From Corythoichthys intestinalis (Eukaryota): 64,000 bases of DNA. The notes beneath the pieces were generated by a model that did no database searches, was not told the origin of the DNA, and saw nothing but the letters and a program-made list of their open reading frames with translations. Of the stretch, positions 2,371 through 62,205 are shown one piece after another. Where the stretch lies: NCBI RefSeq assembly GCF_030265065.1, contig NC_080408.1, positions 22,919,480 through 22,983,479 on the forward strand, given 5' to 3'. Made by a program: the position numbers and the translations under genes. Each line of letters opens with the position of its first letter. Position 1 is the stretch's first letter.

Positions 2371-3364
2371 GATTCTAATGGTGATAATGCCCTGATTATT
2401 ATTTGTTGTGTCTGTGTTTGGCAGACAGCACTCATATGTTTTTCTGTTTAACAACAATACATTGGATTTTTTTCCTATTTTTGGGCCCTCTTCCCTCAGA
2501 TTTAAGGTGGAAACTGATGTGTCAACCCTGTCAAGAGGTCAAAACGCAGGTGTGTTAGGCCCCTCCCTTTTCACCTTTTCTTCCTCCCTAGGCTCCTCCT
2601 CCTCAGGTGAGTCACACAAAAGAAAACAAAGGGTTTCGGCGACATCATCGAAAGGTAAGATGCTCGAATTTGTCATCTGAGGCCTGATGATGATGATTAC
2701 TGGGTGTGTTCTGTGTAGGCTTTCTTCAAGTACTCCAGTTTCCTCAAAGATCTAAAAAACATCCATGTCACCTTCATTGTCATGACTGTATTCGCACAAT
2801 GACCCACAGTGAGAATGCTTGTCAAAATGTGCTCTGTGTTGGCTGGTATTGAGGTCAATGTGTATGTTCAGCTTGAATGAGGATAAACATTTTAGAAAAT
2901 GGATTACTGTAGTGTTTGCTCATTACATTACTATTGGTACACTAGATCATATCAAGCAAGAGATCTCAATGCAATAGAAGATCTCTGGGGATTGCCAGAA
3001 GACCCGACAAGCAGCAACATGCTCAACATTAGAGTATGCAAAGTATTATATTTAGAAACTCGGTCTACATATTAGCAGCATGACGACACATTGCCTAGGA
3101 CAAGACAATGGATAAATTGTGCCAATAATTACAACAGATAGATGGAAAAGATTTTGGGGGGGATGAATTTAAAAGTAAATATAGTCAAAATACATAGAAT
3201 TAATGCAAATAATTAAAAAAATTTTTTCGAGTGAAATGTGATTTTAGATTTTTTTAAAATTTCTATTATAATACATTTTGTTATTTTAGAATTTTTTACC
3301 CTTTAGTTTTTCACAATTATATGATACACAGTAAAAGCGGTGTATATACATAAACACTGTATGA

Positions 3365-3414
<50 letters not shown>

Positions 3415-3532
3415 AAGTTCTGTCAAGCGTTTAGAATTTTTAATTGCATGTATATATATTTTTTTTAATTAAAAAAAAATGAATTCCTTGATTTTTGTCC
3501 TATTATTTTAGCACATTTTAATACCTGTATAT

Positions 3533-3880
3533 ATGTGGCGGAAAACACAGACAAGACCTAAAAGCAGTTTAGGCTCTTGCATTCCTCTTTAAAATAAACT
3601 GCTGTATTTTAAGCCAAAAGAACTGCTGTGTTTGAAAGAACAATATGTCTATATGCTGCCATAGCAGATTCACGGCACATTAAGCCCCCGAACTATTTTT
3701 AATTTGTCCGTTTTACCCTGGAAACCCCCGTCGCGCAACCACTTTTATTTCAACCCAGCCATAAAAAGAAGGGAAGTAATTATATTTATTATTCAACATG
3801 TCTGTCATTTTTAGCTTAGAATCATTAATTGATGTGTAATATTTCGTTTAAAACAAAAACAAAAACGACTTAAAAAAAAT
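3533..3880 (-). mobile_element. Partial copy (one end) of ~1-kb element with CATATGGCGGAAAACAC-type TIR
   Basis: atatgtggcggaaaacacagacaagac... is the reverse complement of the right end of the copies at 8286-9274 and 41317-42292. Confidence 0.5.
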
Positions 3881-4372
3881 ATTCACTTGCATAATGCCTG
3901 CAATATGAAGCAATTGTCAGAGAATCACAAAATTTGAAAAATAAGGTCTTACCGTAACCTTTTTTTCAAATTTGTAAAAAAGAAAAAAAATAATATGTGT
4001 AATAAGCGCTCTAATATCTATAACCCTTGCTAAATCATTTTTTTCCCCTCATGGAACCTGCAGATGCATAAGTTGACTTGCATCCATTATTATTATTATT
4101 ATTTTTTTTTTTTGAGGAAAGATATTTCAAAATTCTGAATTAGTCTCAAAATCATGAAATTCTAAATGTATCAAAAGTGATACATTTGGCAAGAAGGAGT
4201 TAAACCATGTTTCACCTATAAAATCCACAATACATCCGGCTGTGGCTAGAGATGGGCGATACCAGTGATTTTGGATTCGATCCGATACCAAGTAATACCA
4301 AGGCCAAATATTGTGATCCCAATCCGATATCGATACCGGAAGTTCATATTCTATATATATATATGTGTATAT

Positions 4373-5030
4373 TAGGGCTGTAAAAATTGTCTCGTTAACG
4401 GGCGGTAATTATTTTTTTAAATTAATCACGTTAAAATATTTGACGCAATTAACGCACATGTCCCGCTCAGACAGATTTAAATGACAGTAGAGGGAAATGC
4501 CCACTTGTTCATTGTGTTTTATGTAGTTTTGCCACCCTCTGCTGGCGCTTGGGTGCGACTGATTTTATAAGCTTCAGTACCCATGAGCATTGTGTAAGTA
4601 ATTATTGACATCAACAATGGCGGGCTACTAGTTTATTTTTTTGATTGAAAATTTTACAAATTTTATCAAAACGAAAACATTAAGAGGGGTTTTAATATAA
4701 AATTTCTATAACTTGTACTAACATTTATCTTTTAAGAACTACAAGTCTTTCTATCCATGGATTGCTTTAACAAAATGTTAATGATGTTAATGCCATCTTG
4801 TTGATTTATTGTTATAATAAACAAATACAGTCCTTATGTACCGTATGTTGAATGTATATATCCATCTTGTGTCTTATCTTTCCATTCCAACAATTTATTT
4901 TACAGAATATATATACAATTTACAGAAAAATATGGCATATTTTATAGATGGTTTGAATTGCGATTAATTACGATTAATTAATTTTTAAGCTGTAATTAAC
5001 TTGATTAAAAAAATTAATCGTTTGACAGCC

Positions 5031-11636: not shown

Positions 11637-11684
11637 GTAAACCAACATCAAATGCATTTGTTCTTTTGATTTATTCATGTATAT

Positions 11685-12676
11685 TAGGGTTGTTCCGATC
11701 CTGTTTTTTTGCTCCTGATCCGATCCCGATCGTTTTAGCTTGAGTATCTGCCGATCCCGATATTTCCCGATCCGATTGCTTTTTTTGCTCCCGATTCAAT
11801 TCCAATCATTCCCGATAATTTTTCCCGATCATATACATTTTGGCAATGCATTAAGAAAAAAATGAATAAAACTCGGACGAACATATACATTCAACATACA
11901 GTACATAAGTACTGTATTTGTTTATTATGACAATAAATCCTCAAGATGGCATTTACATTATTAACATTCTTTCTGTGAGAGGGATCCACGGATAGAAAGA
12001 CTTTGGACTTTGTATATTGTGATTAAATATTGCCATCTAGTGTATTTGTTGAGCTTTCAGTAAATGACACTGTAGCCATGCCTAATTGCATGATGGGAAG
12101 CGGAACCATGACTGTGCGTAGTGCTACCAATTGATATATCTTCTCTGCGTTAGGAAATAACATAAGGTGTTAAGTAAAAGATCAATTGCTACCTTGCATC
12201 CCCACATTGATTTCCATGATATTACTAATCGTGGGAAGAGGGATTGTAAGGCTTTAGCCAATTAAAAAAAGGCTCCAAAGGCTGCCAAAATTCACTCTAC
12301 TCATTTTACGCTGCCTTTTATCTCTCTATATAGGTAAAATGGCGCCATTACAGATTGAGCGCGACAGTGCGTGAGTGGGTCGTGCAGTGCATGCATGAAC
12401 TGCGTTAAATATTTTAACGTGATACATTTTTTTAAAAATTAATTACCGCCGTTATCGGGATAAATTTGATAACCCTACCTTAAGTCTAAACTAAAGACTC
12501 TGGATGAGTGTAACATATTATGTCTGTAACGTTAAATACAATTAGAAAACGATTTAATTAATAAAAAAATATATACAGTATATTAAAAAAAGGCATGGCC
12601 GATATTTTTTTGCCGATTCCGATACTTTGAAAATGACGTAATCGGGGTCCGATGCCGATCGATCGGGACATCTCTA
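11685..12676 (+). mobile_element. hAT-type MITE family 2 (TIR TAGGGTTGTTCCGATC / GATCGGGACATCTCTA), intronic
   Basis: Perfect 8-bp TSD ATGTATAT at 11677-11684 and 12677-12684. Second copy at 59842-60823 with TSD CTTCAAAT. Confidence 0.75.
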
Positions 12677-12739: not shown

Positions 12740-13375
12740 TACCATCATCATTAACCTAACCCTTATTGGCACCCCTGGTTAAGATGTATTTTTTAGCTTC
12801 TAATAATTTTTTAAAAATTCAAATAATATGGGACCTTAATGGAAAAAAACAGGTTCAGTGGTCAGTGATGCTGTGGGGCTGTTTCGCTTCCTAAGGCCCT
12901 GGGAACCTTGTTAGGGTGCATGGCATCATGAATGCTTTGAATTACCAGGACATTTTAAATCAAAATCTATTGCCCTCTGCCCGAAAGCTGAAGATGGGTC
13001 GTCACTGGGTCTTTCAGCAAGACAATGACCCTAAACATATGGCCAAATCTACACAGAAATGGTTCGCCAGATACAAAATCAAGCTTGTGAAACATTATAG
13101 GAGAAGATTACGTGTTGTTTTGTTGGCAAAAGGGGGTTGTACAAAGTATTAACACCAGGGGTGCTAATAATTGTGACACACATTATTTGATGTCAAATAA
13201 TTATTTCTTTATGTGGGATTTTTTTCCCCCACTGAATAAATGCACTTGTATTGAAGGTTGGATTCTTCTCTTTTTTTTCAATTAAGGTCCAATATTATTT
13301 GAATTAAATAAAAAATATTAGAAGCTAAAAAAGACATCTTAACCAGGGGTGCCAATAATTATGGAGGGCACTGTA
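12740..13375 (+). mobile_element. Tc1-like element, 5'-truncated deletion derivative (3' transposase fragment + right TIR)
   Basis: Encodes ...[56 protein letters not shown]... (Tc1/mariner DDE C-terminal region). Ends ...ccaataattatggagggcactgta, the TIR terminus shared with 38867-40249. Confidence 0.7.
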
Positions 13376-30217: not shown

Positions 30218-30590
30218 TTAGGGCTGTCAAACGATTAAAATTTTTAATCGAGTTAATTACAGCTTAAAAATTAATTAATCGTAATTAATCGCAATTAATC
30301 GCAATTCAAACCATCTATAAAATATGCCATATTTTTCTGTAAATTATTGTTGGAATGGAAAGATAAGACAAGATGGATATATACATTCAACATACGGTAC
30401 ATAAGGACTGTATTTGTTTATTATAACAATAAATCAACAAGATGGCATTAACATTATTAACATTCTGTTAAAGTGATCCATGGATAAAGTGTTATATTAA
30501 AACGCCTCTTAATGTTTTCGTTTTAATGAAATTTGTAAAATTTTCAATCAAAAAATAAACTAGTAGCCCTATTCTGTCCTCAATGTGTGT
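30218..30590 (+). mobile_element. hAT MITE family 1, truncated copy
   Basis: attagggctgtcaaacgattaaaatttttaatcgagttaattacagc... continuing ~370 bp, then diverges. Confidence 0.55.
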
Positions 30591-30989: not shown

Positions 30990-31742
30990 TGAATACTGGA
31001 TGCGGACGTTAGCTGGTCTGAATAGCACTGTCTATTAGTGTGAGTTCACGTCGACATATAATCACGTCAGAAAAGCGCGCCGAAACCCAAATAATCCGCT
31101 GCACTGAATCGCCAGCAGAGGGCGACATTACGCCACATAACATATGCAAGTCACACCCAAGCGCCAGCAGAGGGCGGAAAAACTCCATAAAACACAATTA
31201 ACAAGTTGGCCTTTCACTGTACTGACATTTAAATCTGTCTGAGCGGGCATAGTTTTGGAGCTTTTTGGAGTTTTGTTGCCCTCTGCTGGCACTTGGGTGC
31301 GACTGATTTTATGGGCTTAAGCACCCATGAGCATTGTGTAATTATTGACGTCAACAATGGGGGGCTACTAGTTTATTTTGTGATTGAAAATGTTACAAAT
31401 TTTATTAAAACGAAAACATTAAGAGGGGTTTTAATATAAAATTTCTATAACTTGTACTAACATTTATCTTTTAAGAACTACAAGTCTTTCTATCCATGGA
31501 TCGCTTTAACAGAATGTTAATAATGTTAATGCCATCTTGTTGATTTATTGTTATAATAAACAAATACAGTATTTATGTACCGTATGTTGAATGTATATAT
31601 CCATCTTGTGTCTTATCTTTCCATTCCAACAATAATTTACAGAAATATATGGCATATTTTATAGATGGTTTAAATTGGGATTAATTACGATTAATTAATT
31701 TCTAAACTGTAATTAACTAAAAATTTTAATCGTTTGACAGCC

Positions 31743-38866: not shown

Positions 38867-40249
38867 TACAGTGCCCTCCCGTAATTATTGGATTTATAAT
38901 AATTATGAGTTTTTTAGCTTCTAATAATTTTTTTTTCTAAATAATATGGGATCTTAATGGAAAAAAGAGAAAAATCCAACCTTCAATACAAGTGCATTTA
39001 TTCAGTGGGGAAAAAAATCCCACATAAAGAAATAATTATTTGACATCAAATAATGTGTATCACAATTATTAGCACCCCTGGTGTTAATACTTTGTACAAC
39101 CCCCTTGTCCCAACAAAACAGCACCTAATCTTCTCCTATATTGTCTTGCTGAAAGACCCAGTGACGACCCATCTTCATCTTTCGGGCAGAGGGCAACAGA
39201 TTTTGATTTAAAATGTCCTGGTATTTCAAAGCATTCATGATGCCATGCACCCTAACAAGGTTCCCAGGGCCTTTGGAAGTGAAACAGCCCCACAGCATCA
39301 CTGACCCACCCCCATACTTCACAGTGGGTATGAGGTGCTTTTCAGCATGCGCATCTTTCGTGGCACGCCAGACCCACTTAGAGTGTTTGTTGCCAAAAAG
39401 CTCAATCTTGGTCTCATCTGACCAAAGCACACGGTCCCAGTTGAAGCCCCAATACCGCTTGGCGATTTCCAGACGTTCGCGTTTATGATTGTGAGTGAGG
39501 AAAGGTTTTCTCCGTGCATGCCTCCCAAACAGCTTGTTGGCGTGTAGACAGCACCTCATACCCACTGGGAAGTATGGGGGTGGGTCAGTGATGCTGTGGG
39601 GCTGTTTCGCTTCCAAAGGCCCTTGTTAGGGTGCATGGCATCATGAATGCTTTGAAATACCAGGACATTTTAAATCAAAATCTGTTGCCCTCTGCCCGAA
39701 AGCTGAAGATGGGTCGTCACTGGGTCTTTCAGCAAGACAATGACCCTAAACATATGGCCAAATCTACACAGAAATGGTTCACCAGACACAAAATCAAGCT
39801 CCTCCCATGGCCATCTCAGTTCCCAAACCTCAACCCCATTGAAAACCTGTGGGGTGAGGGAAGAGGAGAGTACAGAGAGAGGACCCAGGTCTCTGGATGA
39901 TTTAGAGATATTCTGCAAAGAGGAATGGCTGAAGATCCCTCTTTCTGTCTTTTCCCATCTTGTGAAACATTATAGGAGAAGATTAGGTGCTGTTTTGTTG
40001 GCAAAAGGGGGTAGTACAAAGTATTAACACCAGGGGTGCTAATAATTGTGACACACATTATTTGATGTCAAATAATTATTTCTTTATGTGGGATTTTTTT
40101 CCCTACTGAATAAATGCACTTGTATTGAAGGTTGGATTTTTCTCTTTTTCTCCATTAAGGTCCCATATTATTTAGAACAAGAAAAAAAAATAGTAGAAGC
40201 TAAAAAACACATAATTATTATAAATCCAATAATTATGGAGGGCACTGTA
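38867..40249 (+). mobile_element. Tc1-like DNA transposon (TIR TACAGTGCCCTCC…ATAATTATTGG), internally palindromic and non-functional
   Basis: ~190-bp TIRs at both ends ending cactgta. Interior holds two head-to-head transposase C-terminal fragments, - strand 39125-39616 and + strand 39631-39900 ([49 protein letters not shown]...). 39061-39337 is the reverse complement of 39553-39830. No intact ORF. Confidence 0.75.
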
Positions 40250-46250: not shown

Positions 46251-46333
46251 AGTCATCGAGAATCTGTTGAATGCATTGCATGCATATCTAATGAAGTGTC
46301 CAGCAAACATCTGTAATATTTGCATCTGCAGGG

Positions 46334-48297
46334 CAATGGAGGAGGCAGCCGACCGTGTTTACATGGCTGCACGACTGTTTGTGCACCTCTTCAACCAGCG
46401 GGGGGCGTCCTTGCAACAGTGTATCCTGGAGCTGCTGGCCATCGCCGATGCCGCTGACCAGTTCCACAAGAAGACTGTATCAGCGGCCGTGGGTGGTGGC
46501 GTGGCGAGCGTGGCCGGCAGCCTGACCACCATCACGGGGCTCATCCTGGCACCGTTCACCTTCGGCGCCTCCATCATTGTCACAGCGGTGGGCATCGGCG
46601 TGGCCACAGCGGGAAGCATCACCTCGGCCACCGCCAACATCACTGACACTGTCCATTCTAACATGGACCGCAAGAAAGTGGAGAAGATGATCCAAGACTA
46701 TCAGGAGAGGATCAAAGATATCCGGGACTGCATGGATTTTGTGCAGGAGGGTATAGATACCCTACAGGAATGGGACTTTGAGAAATACTCGCAGAGTGCC
46801 GCGAAGAAGGCCCTGAATCACAACATCAAGCACGTGGTAAAGGAAGGCGGCCGGGCAGGGAAAGCCCTCATGATAAACACTGACAAGCTCATCAGCACCG
46901 TCCAAGTTCTGGGTGCGGGAGCTGGAGCAGCCAAAGCCGCCCAGGCCATAAGTGTCACCACAGGTGTCATGTCGGCGCTCTTCCTTGCTCTCGATGTCTT
47001 CTTCCTCGCCAAAGACTCCCACGAGTTGCGCAAAGGTGCCAAGACCAAGTTCGCCTCCAAGATAAGGGACGTGTGCAAAGATCTGCAGGATGGTCTTCTG
47101 GAGCTCAACAAGGTCAAGACCCAACTACAGAAAACCATGGACGGCATTGAAGTGGAAGAGTATGAGGAGATCGAGGAAGTGGAGGTGGAAGTGGATGACG
47201 ACCTGGAGTCTGATCCCAAGAAGCTGGCTGAGCTAGAGCAAGAGCTGGACCTCATGGAAGAGAAATTAGACAAGAGGATTGAGGATGGCAAAAATGCAGA
47301 AAAGGAAAGCGAATCCAAGGAGAAGAAGGAAGGGACAAGGAAGAAAGACAAACTGGACAAGGAAACAGAGAACCAGATCACAGCCTGGAAGGGAAAAAAG
47401 GAAAAAGAGGAAACATCTTCACTTAAAAAAGAGAAGGAGAAACCCAAAGAGAAGGACAATGTTGGGAAGGATCCAAATGAAAGAACAGTAGAATCCAGAA
47501 AGAAGTCAGAATATGAGAAAACTACCGAAGACAGATTGAAAGAAGCACCTACCAAAACACAAGACTCCCTTAGGATGCCAGAACATGACCGACGCGACAG
47601 AGAAAGTGAAGGGACGGAACTACGTAGAGATACAGGGGATTCTAAAAGGAAGCCAGGACATGAGAGAAGCCACCAAGAAGAAAGAATGACGACTGGGAAT
47701 CCTGATGGAAGAGCTAATATTGGTGAGCGGGCCAATCATGAGAGAGGAAGCAATAGATACGCCAAAAATAAAAGCAGCCTGACAGACAAGATTCGAGCAA
47801 AAGACTCGAGGACAGAAACGGGAAGTAGAGAAGAACAAGATTGGGAGAGGTCAATGATGAGGGACTCTCACGAAAGAAGTGACGACTGGAGGGGTTCGCA
47901 TCGGAGTCACAAATCGAGCCGAAGGAACTATTCAGATGATAAGATAGCCAGCCAGAAGAGTTACCACAGGAGGTCGACGGGAGAGGTGGAAGCAGAAGTG
48001 CGTGGCGAGGACAAACGAGTGAGCCGAATCGAGAGCGCCCGAAAGAAGTTTGAAAGAGATTTTGAGGACGTGGAGGAGCATCGAGGGAGCACGGAGCATC
48101 ATAGGAGAGATAGTGACAGAGTCAAGACAGGAGGCGATCGGGAGAGGAGAGGAAGTGATCGGGAAAGGCGAGAAAGTCACAGAGACACGACAATAAGTGA
48201 TCGGGAGAGGAGAGAAAGTGACAGAGAGCGGAAACATAGTCGTGGAAGTTCTCGCCATCATTCCAGCATCCTCATGGATGACGGACTCTACATTTAG
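46334..48297 (+). CDS. Apolipoprotein L (APOL)-like protein with long charged C-terminal extension, main or terminal coding exon (stop 48295-48297)
   Basis: ORF 46267-48297. Acceptor tgcatctgcag|G (46332/46333), phase-2 entry identical to gene 1. Strong-Kozak ATG at 46336 (gcaATGG). N-terminal ~270 aa align with gene 1 and the APOL core (…LAIADAADQFHKKTVSAAVGGGVASVAGSLTTITGLILAPFTFGASIIVTAVGIGVATAGS…LALDVFFLAKDSHELRKGAKTKFASKIRDV…LQDGLLELN). Followed by ~370 aa E/K/R/D/S-rich low complexity with RD/RE/RS repeats (…DRERRGSDRERRESHRDTTISDRERRESDRERKHSRGSS…). Confidence 0.8.
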
Positions 48298-52451: not shown

Positions 52452-54810
52452 TCATTGGAATTCAACCCCCTTGTCCCGTTGCCGTTCCCGCTCGCTTTCA
52501 CGCTCCTTTTCTCGCCTCAAAGTAGCTATAGCGACAGCCTCGTCGAAGCACATGCTGAGCGGGCTGTTTCGGGGCGAGTCCTTGCCGCAGGTGGCACCGA
52601 CATCATCTGGCGTGTCGGCATCCCTCCTCTCTCGCTGTTGTTGCTGTTGTCGAAGACTCCGGGCAACCAATTTACAGTGTTGGGGCTTGGGTGGGACAAT
52701 TGGTACCGCTTTCACTTGGTAAACGTTGGGCAATTTTGAGATAACCAGCTTCCTTCCTACTCCTCGATCCTCAAACCTCATACCTTCTCTGTACTCCAGA
52801 ATATCAGATCTGACATCTTTCTGGGGTGTATCTCGAAGACTTGGTGTCACTATCACTTCTTCACAATTGGGTTTGTTCTCGATGGGTACCAACTTTTCGC
52901 TTAGGGTACATTCTTCTTTGGGTAACTTTAGTCCTTGCTCTTCAAACTTTACATTTTCTTGGGACTCCGCAACATATTTAAGGGGTGTGTCTCCACGACT
53001 TGGTGTCACTGTCACTTCCTCACAAATGAGTTTGTTTTCTTCACGTACCAACTTTTCCTCAACAGTAAATTCTGGTTCACACCACTTTGGTTCTTGCTCC
53101 TCAGTCCTTGCAGCTTCTTCAAACTTGGGAAAATCCTCTTTCAGGGGTTCATCGCCAATACTTAGTGACACTGTCAGTTCCCCACAAATGGGTTTGTCAT
53201 TTTCAGTCTCCAAATTCTCCTGAAGAGTAACTTCCGGGTCACACCTCTCTGATCCTTGCTCCTCAACCTTCACAGCAAATCCGGACCGCGCAACATCAGA
53301 ACTGACAACTTTCAGGGTTGCATCTCTAAAACTCGGTGTAACTGTCACTTCCTCACAAATGGGCTTTTCTTCTTCACGCACAAACGTTTTCTTAATAATA
53401 AAATCTGATTCACACTTCTCTGGTCCTTGCTCCTCAATGCTCATGGCTTCTCCAATCTCTGGAACTTCCGCCCTGACCTCTTTCAGGGGTATATCTCTAA
53501 GACTTGGCGTCACTATCACTTCCTCACAAATTGGTTTGTCTTCTTCAGGCACCAAATTTTCCTTGACAGGAACATCTTGTTCACATCTGTCTGGAACTTG
53601 TTCATCAAGCTTCCTGTCTTCTCCGGACAGTGGGATGTCAGACCTGATCTCTCTCAGTGGTATATCTCTAAGGCTTGACTTTGCTGTCACTTCTTCACCA
53701 ACAGGTTTTTCATCTTCAGTCAACAAATTCTCCTGAACAGTAGCTTCTGGTTCGCACTTCTCTGGTCCTTGCTCCTCAAACGTCACAGCTTCTCCAGCCC
53801 CCGAAACAATAGGCCTGAGAAGTTTCAGGGGTGTATCTATAAGACTTGGTGTCACTGTCAGTTCCTCACTAATAGGTTTCACTTCTATAGACACAAATCT
53901 TTCCTTAACAGTAACATCTAGTTCACACCTTTCTAGTTCTTGCTCCTCAACCCTCATGGCTTCTCCAGAATCTTGAATGTCAGACCTGACCTCTTTCAGG
54001 GATCTATCTCGAAGAGTTGGTGTCACGGACATTTCCTTGCGAAAGGGTTTGTCTTCTTCAGGCACAAGCTTTTCCCGAACAGTACCTTCTTGTTCACATC
54101 TCTCTGGACCTTTCTCGTCAAGACTCACACCTTCTCTAGACTCTGATTCGTCAGACCTGACCTTTTTCAGAGGTGTATCTTCAAGACTTGGGGTCACTTC
54201 CACTTCCACACAAGTTGGTGCTTCGGGCACCAACATTTTTACAACCTCAGCTACTTGGTCAAATCTCTCTGTAGAGTTCATCTCCTTCACCTCAGTCTTC
54301 TGTCCTGGAATTGTCTCTATCTTGTTGGTCTCTTCGCTGTATTCACCCTCCACTGTCTTTCTTTCTTCTTCCTCAATCAGTTCACAAACGACCTCCTCAA
54401 GCTCCTTCCAGACTATCATGAAGTCTTCCTCCTGCGTCTTTCCTGATCTCAGTTCCTTGTTCTCTTCTTTTGAGAGATTTTTAGGCAAATTTCCTATAGT
54501 TTCAGGATTCATATCCTCTGTGTTTTTGCCATCTTCTCCCTCATCCGTGTCCTGTTTAACAGATGCTGTCACCTCTTCAGAAACATCTAGGAGCTCCTCT
54601 GCTTCGGATGTTTCTTTCTGAGCACAACCAGAAACAGAGTAGTGAAGGACCTCTTCTTCCTGTCTTACGTTACTAACTGCTACATCATCAGTGGTGTCAA
54701 CACTTGATTCATCTGTGTGCTCTTGCATTGCTAAGTCTAGACATTGGTTTGATGGCATTTCTAAGGAGAAAGGTTCAGGCCCAGCTTCCTTCATTATGAG
54801 ATCTTCATTC
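52452..54810 (-). CDS. Glu-rich protein with nine tandem ~57-aa repeats (consensus VTPSLRDTPLKEVRSDI..SGEAM.VEEQGPEKCEPE.TV.ENLVPEEDKPICEEV); large coding exon, stop at 52452-52454
   Basis: 780-codon ORF on the - strand. Upstream acceptor (- strand ttttctgtgcag|G at 54811/54810), so ATG 54794 may be the start (with spliced 5' UTR) or internal. Repeat period 171 nt. Two conserved Cys per repeat (RCE… and KPICEEV). The + strand ORFs over the same region (52726-53223, 53359-53736, 53977-54621) are shadow frames. Confidence 0.65.
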
Positions 54811-58070: not shown

Positions 58071-58678
58071 TAGGGCTGTCAAAATTATCGCATTAACGGG
58101 CGGTAATTCATTTTTTTAATTAATCACTTTAAAATATTTGACGCAATTAACGCACATGCCCCGCTCAAACATATTAAAATGACAGCACAATGTCATGCCC
58201 ACTTGTTACCTGTGTTTTTTACCTCCCTCTGCTGGCGCTTTGGTGCGACTGAATTTATGGGTTTAAGCACCATGAACATTGTGTAATTATTGACATCAAC
58301 AATGGCGAGTTATTAGTTTATTTTTTGATTGAAAATTTTACAAATTTTATTAAAACGAAAATGTTAAGAGGGTTTTTGATATAAAACTTCTATAACTTTT
58401 ACTAACATTTATCTTTTAAGAACTACAAGTATCAATGGATCGCTTTAACAGAATGTTAATATTAATGCCATCTTGTTGATTTATTGTTATAATAAACAAA
58501 TACAGTACTTATGTACAGTATGTTGAATCTATATAGCCGTCTTGCGTCTTATCTTTCCATTCCAATAATAGTCTACAGAAAAATATGGCATATTTTATCG
58601 ATGGTTTGAATTGCGATTAATTACGATTAATTAATTTTTAAGCTGTGATTAACTTGATTAAAAATTTTAATCGTTTGA
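58071..58678 (-). mobile_element. hAT-type MITE family 1 copy nested in the TA-target MITE
   Basis: tagggctgtcaaaattatcg...cgtttgacagcccta. 8-bp TSD ATCATGAT / ATCATAAT (one mismatch). Confidence 0.7.
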
Positions 58679-58938: not shown

Positions 58939-59538
58939 TCACCTTAGACTCTTGTCCTCTTGGTCCTTAAGTCTTTCTTCGTTTTGTGGTATTGTGTTTT
59001 CGCCTACGTCTGCGTCATCCTGGCTCTTATCGCTATTATTTTGTTGTTTGGCCGTACAGCATTCAGGGTTAAATTCCATTTCTTCAGATGACTCGTCCAC
59101 GGAAACGTTTTCAGCAGTACTAGCTGGAACATTGTCCGGCTCAAGATCACTTGGGCTGCTTAGAAAGAAGTCCGCAGGAAGGCTTGTAGCAAGCAAGCTG
59201 CTTTCTTCATCACTGCTATAGTAGTGGACAGCATCGTCATCTTCCGTGTTATCTCCGTCATCAGTGCAACACTCCCCTGGTTCACAAACAGGTGAGGTCA
59301 TGTAAGGCAAGCTTAGGGATTTTCCATGCCGTTCATTCGCATCAACACTGGGCGGCCGGTGGGACTTGAGCTTGTTTTGATCGTTTGTGCTGGGGCTGGT
59401 GCTCAGGCTCGTGTTGGGCCCCTCGGTGTAAGGCAATGGTTGCTCCATGAGTTCGTACTCGTCGTCGGAATAACCGGGAGGTTCAACAGAGAACTCGTTC
59501 ATTTGAGAAGAAGAATCCGGCAAGAAGTGGACAGGGAT
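58939..59538 (-). CDS. Terminal coding exon of an unidentified - strand gene: acidic/Ser-rich C-terminal region with PPGY motif, stop at 58939-58941
   Basis: - strand acceptor tttgtctttttag|ATCCCTG (59540/59538). Frame IPVHFLPDSSSQMNEFSVEPPGYSDDEYELMEQPLPYTEGPNTS…SDEESSLLATSLPADFF…EERLKDQEDKSLR*. Upstream exons would lie beyond the palindromic Tc1-like element or outside the window. Confidence 0.45.
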   Translation of the reverse strand: MPVHFLPDSSSQMNEFSVEPPGYSDDEYELMEQPLPYTEGPNTSLSTSPSTNDQNKLKSHRPPSVDANERHGKSLSLPYMTSPVCEPGECCTDDGDNTEDDDAVHYYSSDEESSLLATSLPADFFLSSPSDLEPDNVPASTAENVSVDESSEEMEFNPECCTAKQQNNSDKSQDDADVGENTIPQNEERLKDQEDKSLR

Positions 59539-59584
59539 CTAAAAAGACAAATTTTGATACTGTTGACATTTTGTGAACCCACAA

Positions 59585-62205
59585 TACAGTTCCTGACAAA
59601 ATATTCATTTTGTAGAAACAATTGCTAATAACCTGACTTTTAATTATTCAATTGGTTTCAGAAATGGCTCATATGAAAGCTAAGACCCTCCCAAATGATG
59701 TTGAATGTACAAAAATATATTTGTTTCACTGAAAAAAGATTTATCATTTAATGAAGACATAAAGGTCAAATTTTGGCAAGACAAAAGTTTTGTCGCCTAC
59801 AGAAAGTAGTGTGAAAATTGAATAAAAAATGTACTTCAAATTGGGGTTGTTCCGATCATGTTTTTTTGCTCCCGATCCGATCCCGATCGTTTTAGTTTGA
59901 GTATCTGCCGATCCTGATATTTCCCGATCCGATTGCTTTTTTTTGCTCCCGATTCAATTCCAATCATTCCCGATACTTTTTCCCGATCATATACATTTTG
60001 GCAATGCATTTAAAAAAAAAAAAGAATACAACTCGGACGAATATATACATTCAACATACAGTACATAAGTACTGTATTTGTTTATTATGACAATAAATCC
60101 TCAAGATGGCATTTACATTATTAACATTCTTTCTGTGAGAGGGATCCACGGATAGAAAGACTTGTAATTCTTAAAGGATAAATGTGACTTTGTATATAGT
60201 GACTAGCTATTGCCATCTAGTGTATTTGTTGAGCTTTCAGTAAATGAAGTGCAACCATGACTGTGCGTAGGGGCACCAATTGATATATCTTCTCTGCTTT
60301 GGGAAATAACACATGGTGTTAAGAAAAAGATCAACTACTACCTTACTTCCCCACATTGCTTTCCATGATATTTCTAATTGTGGAGAGAGGGATTTTAAAG
60401 CTTTAGCCAATTATAAAAAGGCTCCAAAGACTGCCTAAATTCACTCTACTCATTTTACGTTATCTTTTAGCTCGATATGCAAGTAAAACGGCACCATTAT
60501 AGATTGAACACGACAATGCGTGAGTGGGTCGTGCAGCGCATGCGTTAATGCCGTTAAATAATTTTACGTGATTAATTCAAAAAAGATTAATTACCGCCGT
60601 TAACGCGATAAATTTGATAGCCTTACTCTGAGCTAAAACTAAAGACTCTGGATGAGTGTAATACATTTTGTCTGTAACGTTAAATACAAATAGAAAACAA
60701 TTTCATTAAAAAATATAAATATATTAAAAGGCATGTCCGATATTTTTTTGCCGATTCCGATTCTTTGAAAATGACGTGATCGGACCCGATCGATCGGCAT
60801 CCTGATCGATCAGGACATCTTTACTTCAAATACAAAAATATGTTACATAACATAAGCGAATTAAGTAGTGGTGCTGTGAGATCCAAATGTAATATTTTGT
60901 ATGCTTCCATGGGCTTGAAGGACTGCATCCATGCGGTTCGGCAAGGATTCATACAATTTATTGATGAAGTCATCAGGAACATCAAAAAGAGCAGTCTTGC
61001 ATGCCTCCAATAGTTCATCAACATTCTTGGCTTTCGTCTTCCATGCTTCCTCTTTCATCCTACTCCACACATGCTCCATGATGTTCATGTCTGGTGACTG
61101 GGCTGGCCAGTCCTGGAGGTACATGATTGAAGTATGCGATGGAGCACCATCCTGCTGCAGAATTTGTCCCTTTTTATGGTTAGGAATGTGAGAAGCAGCT
61201 AATAACACCATTTACCATTAACACCATTTGTTGATATTTCAGACTATTTATGTTGCCTTCCTACCTGCAGATCTCTCGCACACCCCCATACTGGATGTAA
61301 CCTCAGACCATGATTTTGCCACCACCAAACTTCACTGTTTTCTGAGTGAATCTCGGATCCATGCGGGCTCCAGTAGGTCCCCTGCAATATTTGCGGGGAC
61401 TGTGGTGTAATTCAATGGAAGATTCATCTGAAAAATCCCCCTTTTGCCGCAAAAACAGTGAAGTTTGGTGGTGGCAAAATCATGGTCTGAGGTTACATCA
61501 ACTATGAGTGTGTGCGAGAGATCGGCAGGGTGGAAGGCAACATAAATAGTCTGAAATATCAACAAATATTAGCTGCCTCTTACATTCCTAACCATAAAAA
61601 GGGACAAATTCTGCAGCAGGGTGGTGCTCCATCGCATACTTCAATCAAGATCCTCCAGGACTGGCCAGCCCATTCACCAGACATGAACATCATTGAGCAT
61701 GTCTGGGGTAGGATGAAAGAGGAAGCATGGAAGACGAAAGCCAAGAATGTTGATGAACTCTGGGAGGCATGCAAGACTGCTTTCTTTGATGTTCCTGATG
61801 ACTTCATCCATAAATTGTAAGAATCCTTGCCGAACCGCATGGATGCAGTCCTTCAAGCCAATGGAAGTCATACAAAATATTACATTTGGATCTCACAGCA
61901 CCACTACTTAATTCGCTTATGGTATACATATTTTTGTATTTGAAGTATATTTTTTGTTCAACTCTCACACTACTTTCTGTAGGCGACAAAACTTCTGTCT
62001 TGCCAAAATTTGACCTTTATGTCTTCATTAAATGATAAATCTTTTTTCAGTGAAACAAATATATTTTTGTACATTCAACATTATTTGGGAAGCTCTTAGC
62101 TTTCATATAAGCCATTTCTGAAACCAATTGAATAATTAAAAGTCAGGTTATTAGCAATTGTTTCTACAAAACGGATAAGCGACAAGACTTTTGTCAGGGA
62201 CTGTA
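59585..62205. mobile_element. Tc1-like palindromic element (~2.6 kb) with nested hAT MITE. Two inverted 3' halves of a Tc1 transposase gene joined head-to-head.
   Basis: Ends TACAGTTCCTGACAAAA… / …TTTTGTCAGGGACTGTA with TA flanks. 59590-59830 is the reverse complement of 61930-62170. Transposase C-terminal fragments on - (60861-61211) and + (61512-61820: …IPNHKKGQILQQGGAPSHTSIKILQDWPAHSPDMNIIEHVWGRMKEEAWKTKAKNVDEL…). Symmetry centre ~61400. Confidence 0.7.
59842..60823 (+). mobile_element. hAT-type MITE family 2, second copy, inserted in the left arm of the palindromic Tc1-like element
   Basis: tggggttgttccgatc...gatcaggacatcttta with 8-bp TSD CTTCAAAT (59834-59841 and 60824-60831). ~90% identical to 11685-12676. 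Confidence 0.75.

Follow-up and report, generated by a model that had tools for sequence, protein, structure and literature searches.

Palindromic, non-autonomous Tc1/mariner derivatives made of two inverted 3' parts in a 64-kb stretch of the Corythoichthys intestinalis genome

Mu killer, a naturally occurring inverted duplication in maize of a MuDR element that is partially deleted, contains part of a transposase gene in inverted duplication together with the same terminal repeat twice, and a kilobase-scale hairpin RNA can be made from it by read-through from a flanking gene (PMC3440606). Here we describe two elements that are alike in these respects, E1 (38867-40249) and E2 (59585-62205), in a 64,000-nucleotide stretch of the genome of the fish Corythoichthys intestinalis (NC_080408.1, positions 22,919,480 to 22,983,479 of the forward strand), referred to hereafter as the window. 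In each, the 3' part of a Tc1/mariner element is present twice, as inverted copies. They differ from Mu killer in belonging to Tc1/mariner elements of a fish rather than to Mutator in a plant, and in duplicating the 3' side of the element where Mu killer duplicates the 5' (TIRA/mudrA) side. Silencing and small interfering RNAs (siRNAs) have been demonstrated for Mu killer; for E1 and E2 both would be a prediction.

Other described systems resemble E1 and E2 in part. The Ac/Ds composite insertions of maize are also inverted duplications of fractured transposon pieces, made through the element's own aberrant activity, and are transcribed into double-stranded RNA (dsRNA) and siRNAs (bioRxiv 10.1101/2020.01.07.897926). 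They involve hAT elements and carry flanking host DNA and re-replication products, while in the compact E1 and E2 the duplication goes exactly as far as the ends of the transposon. Internal-deletion derivatives and MITEs (miniature inverted-repeat transposable elements) of the Tc1/mariner group, such as the Aedes Stowaway-like MITEs and Hsmar1/MADE1, are likewise non-autonomous with both termini kept, and their junctions show a few nucleotides of micro-homology (PMC3814204, PMC5224488). These are simple deletions with a genuine 5' end; E1 and E2 have an inverted second 3' half instead. Their arms are transposase-coding remnants, unlike the short non-coding body of a MITE, and contain no tandem sub-repeats, unlike the arms of Foldback elements. 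Fold-back inversions at double-strand breaks share the short unique spacer and the minimal junction homology (PMC10622511), but these occur on a chromosomal scale and extend into flanking DNA, whereas the duplication in E1 and E2 is confined to the mobile element. The canonical DD35E/Traveler and DD34E (Sleeping Beauty-like) elements share with E1 and E2 the TA duplication, the CAGTC or CAGTG termini and the DDE_3 domain (PMC7093834). Canonical elements are about 1.5-1.6 kb long, with repeats of 13-68 bp or about 200 bp and a full gene (intact or degraded), while in E1 and E2 the 5' third is missing entirely and the arms measure 470-750 bp. With E1 and E2, a known class of derivatives, the inverted duplications that arise from aberrant transposon repair or transposition, gains new examples in two Tc1/mariner families of fish.

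Close relatives of both elements were present in comparison contigs (E1 family, L001 and L002; E2 family, L003-L006), and their canonical copies served as proxies for the parent sequences in calling the junctions. The parts of E1 and E2 are as follows, with the flanking TA dinucleotides included in the two full intervals.

38867-40249, no strand assigned: E1, palindromic non-autonomous derivative of a DD34E Tc1-like element of the long inverted-repeat type
38869-39339, minus strand: E1 left arm, reversed copy of the 3' end (arm alignment, translation, tblastn)
39340-39549, minus strand: E1 spacer, 210 nt (translation; contiguous with L001 629-841)
39550-40247, plus strand: E1 right arm (translation, DDE_3 E = 1.3e-7, canonical mapping)
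59585-62205, no strand assigned: E2, palindromic non-autonomous derivative, putatively of a DD35E/Traveler-like Tc1/mariner element
59587-59841, minus strand: E2 left arm, outer part, of the 3'-end type beyond the shared 27-nt terminal repeat (canonical-end match)
59842-60823, no strand assigned: nested hAT-like non-autonomous element, about 982 bp, with 8-bp target duplication CTTCAAAT, in the left arm of E2 only
60832-61343, minus strand: E2 left arm, inner part, a C-terminal transposase remnant with stop codon, 22-nt insertion and 11-aa deletion
61344-61451, minus strand: E2 spacer, about 110 nt (contiguous with L004 3058-3160)
61452-62203, plus strand: E2 right arm, from KTVKFGGG past the C-terminus to the 3' end (translation, DDE_3, canonical mapping)

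An inverted-repeat scan recovered both palindromes as series of collinear arm blocks. In E1 the blocks were 38879-38935/40182-40238, 38962-39144/39967-40149, 39140-39260/39621-39741 and 39266-39339/39550-39623, with 90-99% complementarity. In E2 they were 59602-59841/61938-62177, 60847-60903/61869-61925, 60904-61204/61567-61867 and 61226-61341/61452-61567, with 94-98% complementarity. A sequence-only reading of this DNA had proposed that the arms are inverted, not direct, which the scan confirmed; the two pairs of stretches it had compared by eye (39281-39337/39553-39610 and 59590-59830/61930-62170) both lie inside scanned arm blocks. The scan and a reading of the boundaries found no palindrome in the flanks of E1 or E2 beyond the TA dinucleotides.

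Both hallmarks of Tc1/mariner insertion, a TA target-site duplication and CAGT-type termini, were present in E1 and E2. E1 begins with TA (38867-38868) followed by CAGTGCCCTCC and ends with GGAGGGCACTG followed by TA (40248-40249), a CAGTG...CACTG type. E2 begins with TA (59585-59586) followed by CAGTTCCTGAC and ends with GTCAGGGACTG followed by TA (62204-62205); its left end reads CAGTT and its right end GACTG, that is, CAGTC at the right terminus. In conceptual translation the transposase remnants are read from the minus strand in each left half and from the plus strand in each right half, and three of the four arm translations passed the Pfam DDE_3 threshold. In protein searches, both fragments of each element aligned to fish Tc1-like transposases, at 66-88% identity for E1 and 70-89% for E2. 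The Tc1-like identity assigned in the earlier reading is upheld by the termini (TA/CAGT), the DDE_3 matches and these fish transposases.

Searches by tblastn with seven reference transposases found only three Tc1-like loci in the window, E1, E2 and a third copy referred to as C3, and detected no coding sequence for a helix-turn-helix (HTH) or DNA-binding region at any of them. Coverage of the transposase began at about aa 84-103 in E1 and at aa 141 in E2. Relative to the canonical layout (5' repeat, HTH, DDE domain, 3' repeat), the 5' repeat, the 5' untranslated region and the DNA-binding domain are absent from both elements. Both take the same general form, in which the reverse complement of a parent element P from position a to its end is joined to P from position b to its end, P being one and the same element. 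The translations and the canonical relatives thereby substantiate the proposal that inverted 3' halves are joined head-to-head in mid-transposase with the C-termini facing outward. Neither E1 nor E2 can encode a transposase; they are dead, non-autonomous elements of a teleost genome, each derived from a different Tc1/mariner family.

To compare the arms, the reverse-complemented left arm was aligned globally with the right arm. The arms of E1 were 97.2% identical over 464 aligned nt (2.8% mismatch; Kimura two-parameter distance, 0.029), with five indel events that include a 230-nt deletion in the left arm. Those of E2 were 95.0% identical over 742 aligned nt (Kimura two-parameter distance, 0.052) once the nested insertion (about 982 bp) had been taken out of the left arm. 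Arm identity of 95-97% across hundreds of base pairs cannot come about by chance. Long-read sequencing is known to produce palindromic chimeras, and an artefact of assembly or sequencing, for example a fold-back chimeric read, is a recognised source of such structures. The arms, however, differ from each other by 3-5% and carry private indels, and a transposon with its own target duplication is nested in one arm only; these features exclude a chimera of reads or assembly. Both palindromes also end exactly at transposon termini, and we regard the likelihood of an artefact as negligible.

The left arm of E1 contains the 3' inverted repeat and the C-terminal codons YRRRLGAVLL..TKY-stop, then FQQDN back to HLIPTVKYGGG, and is without the 230 nt present in the right arm (39742-39966). 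The spacer is an unpaired continuation of this longer minus-strand transposase fragment (LHANKLFGRHARRKPFLT...DETKIELFG...AEK) and holds the first catalytic D. The right arm takes in HLIPTGKYGGG, the second D, the E (frameshifted), the stop codon and the 3' inverted repeat, in that order. On the canonical L001, E1 corresponds to 629-1039 and 1271-1548 on the minus strand and then to 842-1548 on the plus strand, with an offset between the breakpoints (b - a) of 213 nt.

E2 follows the same plan. The left 257 nt of the element match the canonical 3' end at 88%, whereas the canonical 5' end matches over 29 nt only, and the left end reads ...TATTCATTTTGTAGAAAC..., which is the 3' type. The spacer continues the longer minus-strand fragment (QKGDFSDESSIELHH...DPRFTQ) and again holds the first catalytic D. 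On the canonical L004, E2 corresponds to 3058-3944 on the minus strand plus 3165-3944 on the plus strand, with an offset of about 107 nt. The nested hAT-like element, about 1 kb long with imperfect termini TAGGGTTGTTCCGATC...GATCGGGACATCTCTA, is present a second time at 11683-12676 with its own 8-bp duplication, ATGTATAT. The 8-bp target duplications of the two copies (CTTCAAAT and ATGTATAT) point to a hAT-like family. Confinement of the insertion to one arm of E2 indicates that it arrived after the palindrome had formed. Fragments of the same element lie elsewhere in the window, at 4721-4861, 30377-30486, 31460-31600 and 58405-58541. The sequence-only reading had overlooked this nested element, as well as the 230-nt deletion in the left arm of E1 and the third copy, C3.

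Palindromes of this kind could also be taken for overlong terminal repeats, and the canonical relatives bear on this. In E1-family relatives from other fishes the ends repeat over only about 140-220 bp. Self-complementarity in L001 is limited to the outer 143+ nt and ends just past the stop codon, with 1-143 pairing with 1332-1471 at 94% (the repeat is clipped by the contig end), and in L002 5808-6024 pairs with 7406-7190. The canonical E2-family copies in L003, L004 and L006 are 1.6-1.7 kb long, have CAGTC termini and share only 27-29 nt between their ends (CAGTCCCTGACAAAAGTCTTGTCGCTT); past this shared repeat the ends are unrelated (5' GGGTACAAATTGACC... versus 3' ATCCATTTTGTAGAAAC...). Because canonical relatives repeat no more than these lengths at their ends, the palindromes that extend through the coding region of E1 and E2 are derived and are not overlong terminal repeats.

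The same relatives were used to assign the families. In E1, 34 residues separate the second D from the E (right-arm translation, counted by eye), and this spacing, together with the long repeats of the relatives, marks it as a DD34E Tc1 element of the long inverted-repeat group. DD35E/Traveler elements are about 1.5 kb long with 13-68-bp terminal repeats ending in CAGTC or CAGCC (PMC7093834). By the hallmarks of its full-length relatives, namely a 35-residue spacing, short repeats and CAGTC termini, E2 appears to be DD35E/Traveler-like. The 35-residue D-to-E spacing is that of the closest full-length relatives, P0131, P0132 and P0123; in E2 itself the spacing is 24 residues through an 11-aa deletion in both arms. 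No DNA similarity between E1 and E2 was detected, and with different families and different junctions the two palindromes are independent instances, as the earlier reading had maintained.

The available evidence indicates that both arms of each element derive from a single parent 3' end. In E2, 34 substitutions are common to both arms and differ from three outgroups, and a 33-nt (11-aa) deletion in the D-to-E spacer is common to both arms and lacking in five relatives. In E1, both arms carry a derived subterminal block, CATAATTATTATAAATCC, in place of the ancestral CATCTTAACCAGGGGTGCC found in C3, L001 and L002, and the derived block is a small inverted copy of the adjacent CCAATAATTAT. The mismatch between the E1 arms (2.8%) is lower than that between either arm and C3 (6-10%). 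Private changes were distributed evenly, with 16 versus 19 substitutions per arm in E2 and 15 versus 9 changes in E1 (binomial p = 0.31). The shared derived characters and the symmetry of the private changes fit two initially identical arms that later decayed neutrally. After formation, the arms would have decayed neutrally and symmetrically until the symmetry was broken by the 230-nt deletion in E1 and the hAT-like insertion in E2. Error-prone synthesis of one E1 arm was considered and rejected, as an asymmetry of 18 versus 4 private changes did not survive the exclusion of the junction bases and of a terminal stretch shifted by an indel. The derived subterminal block of E1 forms part of a mini-palindrome, ATAATTATT-ATAAAT-CCAATAATTAT, which replaces the ancestral sequence in both arms (38884-38909 and 40207-40232) and looks like the trace of an earlier, small fold-back template switch in the 3' end of the parent.

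The junctions were then read against the canonical proxies. The E1 junction lies at 39549/39550 (GTGTAGAC/AGCACC) and has a 3-nt micro-homology, AGC, present both in the reverse complement of the a-region and in the b-region. At the E2 junction, at about 61448-61451 (CCTTTTGCC-GCA-AAAACAGTG), about 3 nt (GCA) match neither side and are filler or of ambiguous origin. The b breakpoint is not at a TA in either element, and no remnant of a 5' terminus was found in E1 or E2. In P0131 numbering, the breakpoints fall at aa 172 (E1), 176 (E2) and 184 (C3).

These data bear directly on the possibility that two copies of the same family landed head-to-head, by local hopping or nesting, and that a deletion then removed both 5' halves and the DNA between them. 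These copies have often undergone deletion (230 nt in the left arm of E1, two in C3, 33 nt in E2), the junctions resemble those of end joining, and flanking TA dinucleotides are equally expected under this explanation. It would, however, require the breakpoints to have nearly coincided twice: with independent breakpoints, spacers as small as those observed in both elements (213 and about 107 nt) have p ~0.03-0.04. With no TA at the b breakpoints and no remaining 5' terminus, nested self-insertion alone cannot explain the structures. In addition, the private derived characters shared by the arms would mean that both copies came from the same recent source. We consider this route unlikely, though deserving of attention. 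Autointegration (PMC3952818) was rejected, since intramolecular integration rearranges a single copy and cannot duplicate a 3' half.

The three independent breakpoints at 39550 (E1), 61452 (E2) and 12860 (C3) lie within about 12 codons of one another, beside a conserved KxGGG motif in the transposase. A breakpoint hot-spot at the GGG motif was not significant (p ~0.1-0.2 in a Monte Carlo test with four breakpoints per element), and an explanation by G-quadruplexes was dropped as the G-runs are not common to E1, E2 and the outgroups.

Aberrant repair of a break or gap with a switch of strand or template, probably followed by mobilisation of the product as a unit, is the mechanism that we favour, with some reserve, from the structure of the two elements. 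It would begin with a double-strand break or an excision gap in a parent copy, from which repair synthesis copies inward from the 3' end. A strand or template switch would follow by one of two routes. In the first, the nascent strand folds back about 100-200 nt behind its tip; in the second, both break ends engage 3' ends, the left and right terminal repeats being near-identical, and in E1 the AGC would be the exact 3-nt overlap that allows the two nascent 3' tips to anneal. End joining or micro-homology would then seal the tracts, with AGC at the E1 join and about 3 nt of filler at that of E2. The product would have two perfect transposase-binding termini, and transposase acting in trans could excise and reinsert it as a unit; such mobilisation would account for palindromes that end exactly at TA/CAGT on both sides. 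Template switching and micro-homology are documented in gap repair of DNA transposons (PMC8277862, PMC3814204), and fold-back priming is documented at double-strand breaks (PMC10622511).

The sequence-only reading had attributed both elements to hairpin formation or abortive gap repair after excision. Gap repair or fold-back is plausible in view of the small spacers, the junctions, the lack of an inner TA and the exact ends. As to a hairpin intermediate made by transposase, Tc1/mariner transposition is not known to include such a step.

Several points weigh against repair with strand switching and mobilisation. Parent sequences are known from other species only, and the micro-homology calls rest on these proxies. 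Each junction was read at a single locus, which leaves mobilisation as a unit a proposal. Sleeping Beauty-type elements with long inverted repeats have an enhancer motif in the left repeat (PMC5224488), and by analogy E1, whose ends are both right ends, may transpose poorly. All four E2-family loci in another fish were canonical and none was palindromic, so that the process is not obviously frequent, although a four-locus sample is too small for an estimate of frequency. Searches for further copies were negative within their scope. The junction-crossing open reading frame (ORF) had no match in an exact-protein look-up, the searchable collections evidently being without the source species; no protein match to junction-crossing queries covered the antisense-derived residues; a profile scan found no relatives in JGI metagenome contigs; and the exact junction 24-mers were absent from metagenome contigs and prokaryotic genome contigs.

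The spacers and ends can also be accommodated by replication-coupled aberrant transposition of the kind known for maize Ac, in which transposase, acting on an element that is only partly replicated, engages two 3' ends on sister chromatids, or a fork stalled within the element switches from the leading to the lagging nascent strand. The spacer of the inverted duplication would then reflect the single-stranded gap at the fork, and spacers of about 110 and 210 nt are, by inference, within the range of lagging-strand gaps. The palindrome ends coincide exactly with transposase cleavage sites, which favours such a reaction, and both the Ac composite insertions (bioRxiv 10.1101/2020.01.07.897926) and the FoSTeST model (PMC8277862) offer precedents. 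On the other hand, no such reaction has been described for Tc1/mariner elements, and no sequence feature separates this model from strand switching during repair synthesis. We judge it decidedly unlikely.

The architecture of E1 and E2 predicts extensive folding of any transcript that crosses them. The predicted fold of E1 RNA was a near-continuous hairpin with a minimum free energy of -918 kcal/mol, and that of the inner 1.1 kb of E2 was likewise a hairpin (-888 kcal/mol). Read-through RNA would form a long imperfect duplex of about 0.5-0.75 kb, and read-through is likely for E2, which is intronic. This placement follows from one feature of the window:

58939-59538, minus strand: host coding exon, with a polypyrimidine tract and an AG acceptor at 59540-59539, 46 nt from the E2 terminus

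From the motif SSQMNEF onward, seven database ORFs conserve the protein sequence of this exon, with database matches at 46-55% identity, and E2, lying 46 nt upstream of the acceptor of a conserved minus-strand exon, is therefore intronic. No exons could be placed around E1, where the nearest clear coding sequence is an ORF with an ApoL domain 6 kb downstream. The earlier view that both elements sit in introns thus holds for E2, by the acceptor of the conserved exon, and lacks a flanking exon for E1. With its terminus only 46 nt from the exon (59539-59584), E2 reaches into the stretch expected to hold the intron's branch point, and the insertion may affect splicing of the exon.

The predicted duplex, which the sequence-only reading had proposed as a candidate siRNA precursor, would be a generic substrate for dsRNA pathways, with ADAR editing, Dicer processing to endo-siRNAs and inverted-repeat-triggered excision as candidate fates. 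Elsewhere, siRNAs arise from Mu killer (PMC3440606) and from Ac composite insertions (bioRxiv 10.1101/2020.01.07.897926), repeat-derived dsRNA undergoes A-to-I editing (PMC9989829), and an inverted-repeat-triggered 'SOS splicing' was recently described for Tc1 in C. elegans and human cells (PMC12779559). Rfam and tRNA scans of the window found no known structured RNA.

One might suppose that the palindromes have been maintained as silencers similar to Mu killer, with read-through hairpin RNA diced and the cognate Tc1 families repressed as a result. The long predicted duplexes and the position of E2 in a transcribed intron are in keeping with such a role. Against it, the arms decay at equal and apparently neutral rates, each element has one arm that is disrupted on a large scale, and the cognate families appear dead within the window; no sign of selection for a hairpin role was seen in either element. 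We consider this extremely improbable. A broader proposal is that 3'-3' palindromisation is, within this lineage of fish, a systematic, position-biased outcome of Tc1/mariner repair near KxGGG and that intronic hairpins of this type initiate small-RNA silencing of each invading family, as an animal counterpart of Mu killer that arises independently each time; this is very unlikely.

Should palindromic derivatives of this kind prove frequent and be expressed, they would reveal how a newly invading cut-and-paste transposon is first 'seen' by a vertebrate genome, the dsRNA trigger being created in that case by the element's own faulty repair. To our knowledge, a trigger of this origin has been demonstrated for Mutator and Ac in maize and not for Tc1/mariner elements in animals. 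E1 and E2 are real but ordinary, probable by-products of repair and of modest interest, being two decayed single loci and not a new system. As clean natural records of what is probably strand-switching repair of a broken transposon, they bear on the safety of Sleeping Beauty-type vectors.

The third Tc1-like locus supplied a same-genome outgroup for E1:

12765-13375, plus strand: C3, third copy of the E1 family, an ordinary internal-deletion derivative

C3 consists of a truncated left repeat, GSVMLW..HKIK, LVKHYRRR..stop and a right repeat. It has two deletions, a left terminus shortened by about 17 nt and the ancestral subterminal sequence, and is of the ordinary deletion type, like the internal-deletion derivatives described above.

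For the E2 family, the arms are 8-9% diverged in DNA from L003-L006 (ENA sample ERZ26222911, another fish), while relatives of the adjoining host exon have only about 50% aa identity. This low divergence is compatible with recent horizontal spread, which has been reported for DD35E/Traveler (PMC7093834).

The remainder of the window contains two ORFs with ApoL domains (Pfam PF05461), both on the plus strand, at 740-1708 (E = 6e-36) and 46267-48297 (E = 1e-32). The second has a long, charged, low-complexity tail that contains a 63-nt tandem repeat, and its Pfam match begins at profile position 46, which implies upstream exons somewhere. A 780-aa ORF on the minus strand (52452-54794) comprises about seven diverged 171-nt (57-aa) tandem units without a Pfam match, and probably forms one large exon of the minus-strand gene to which the exon at 58939-59538 belongs.

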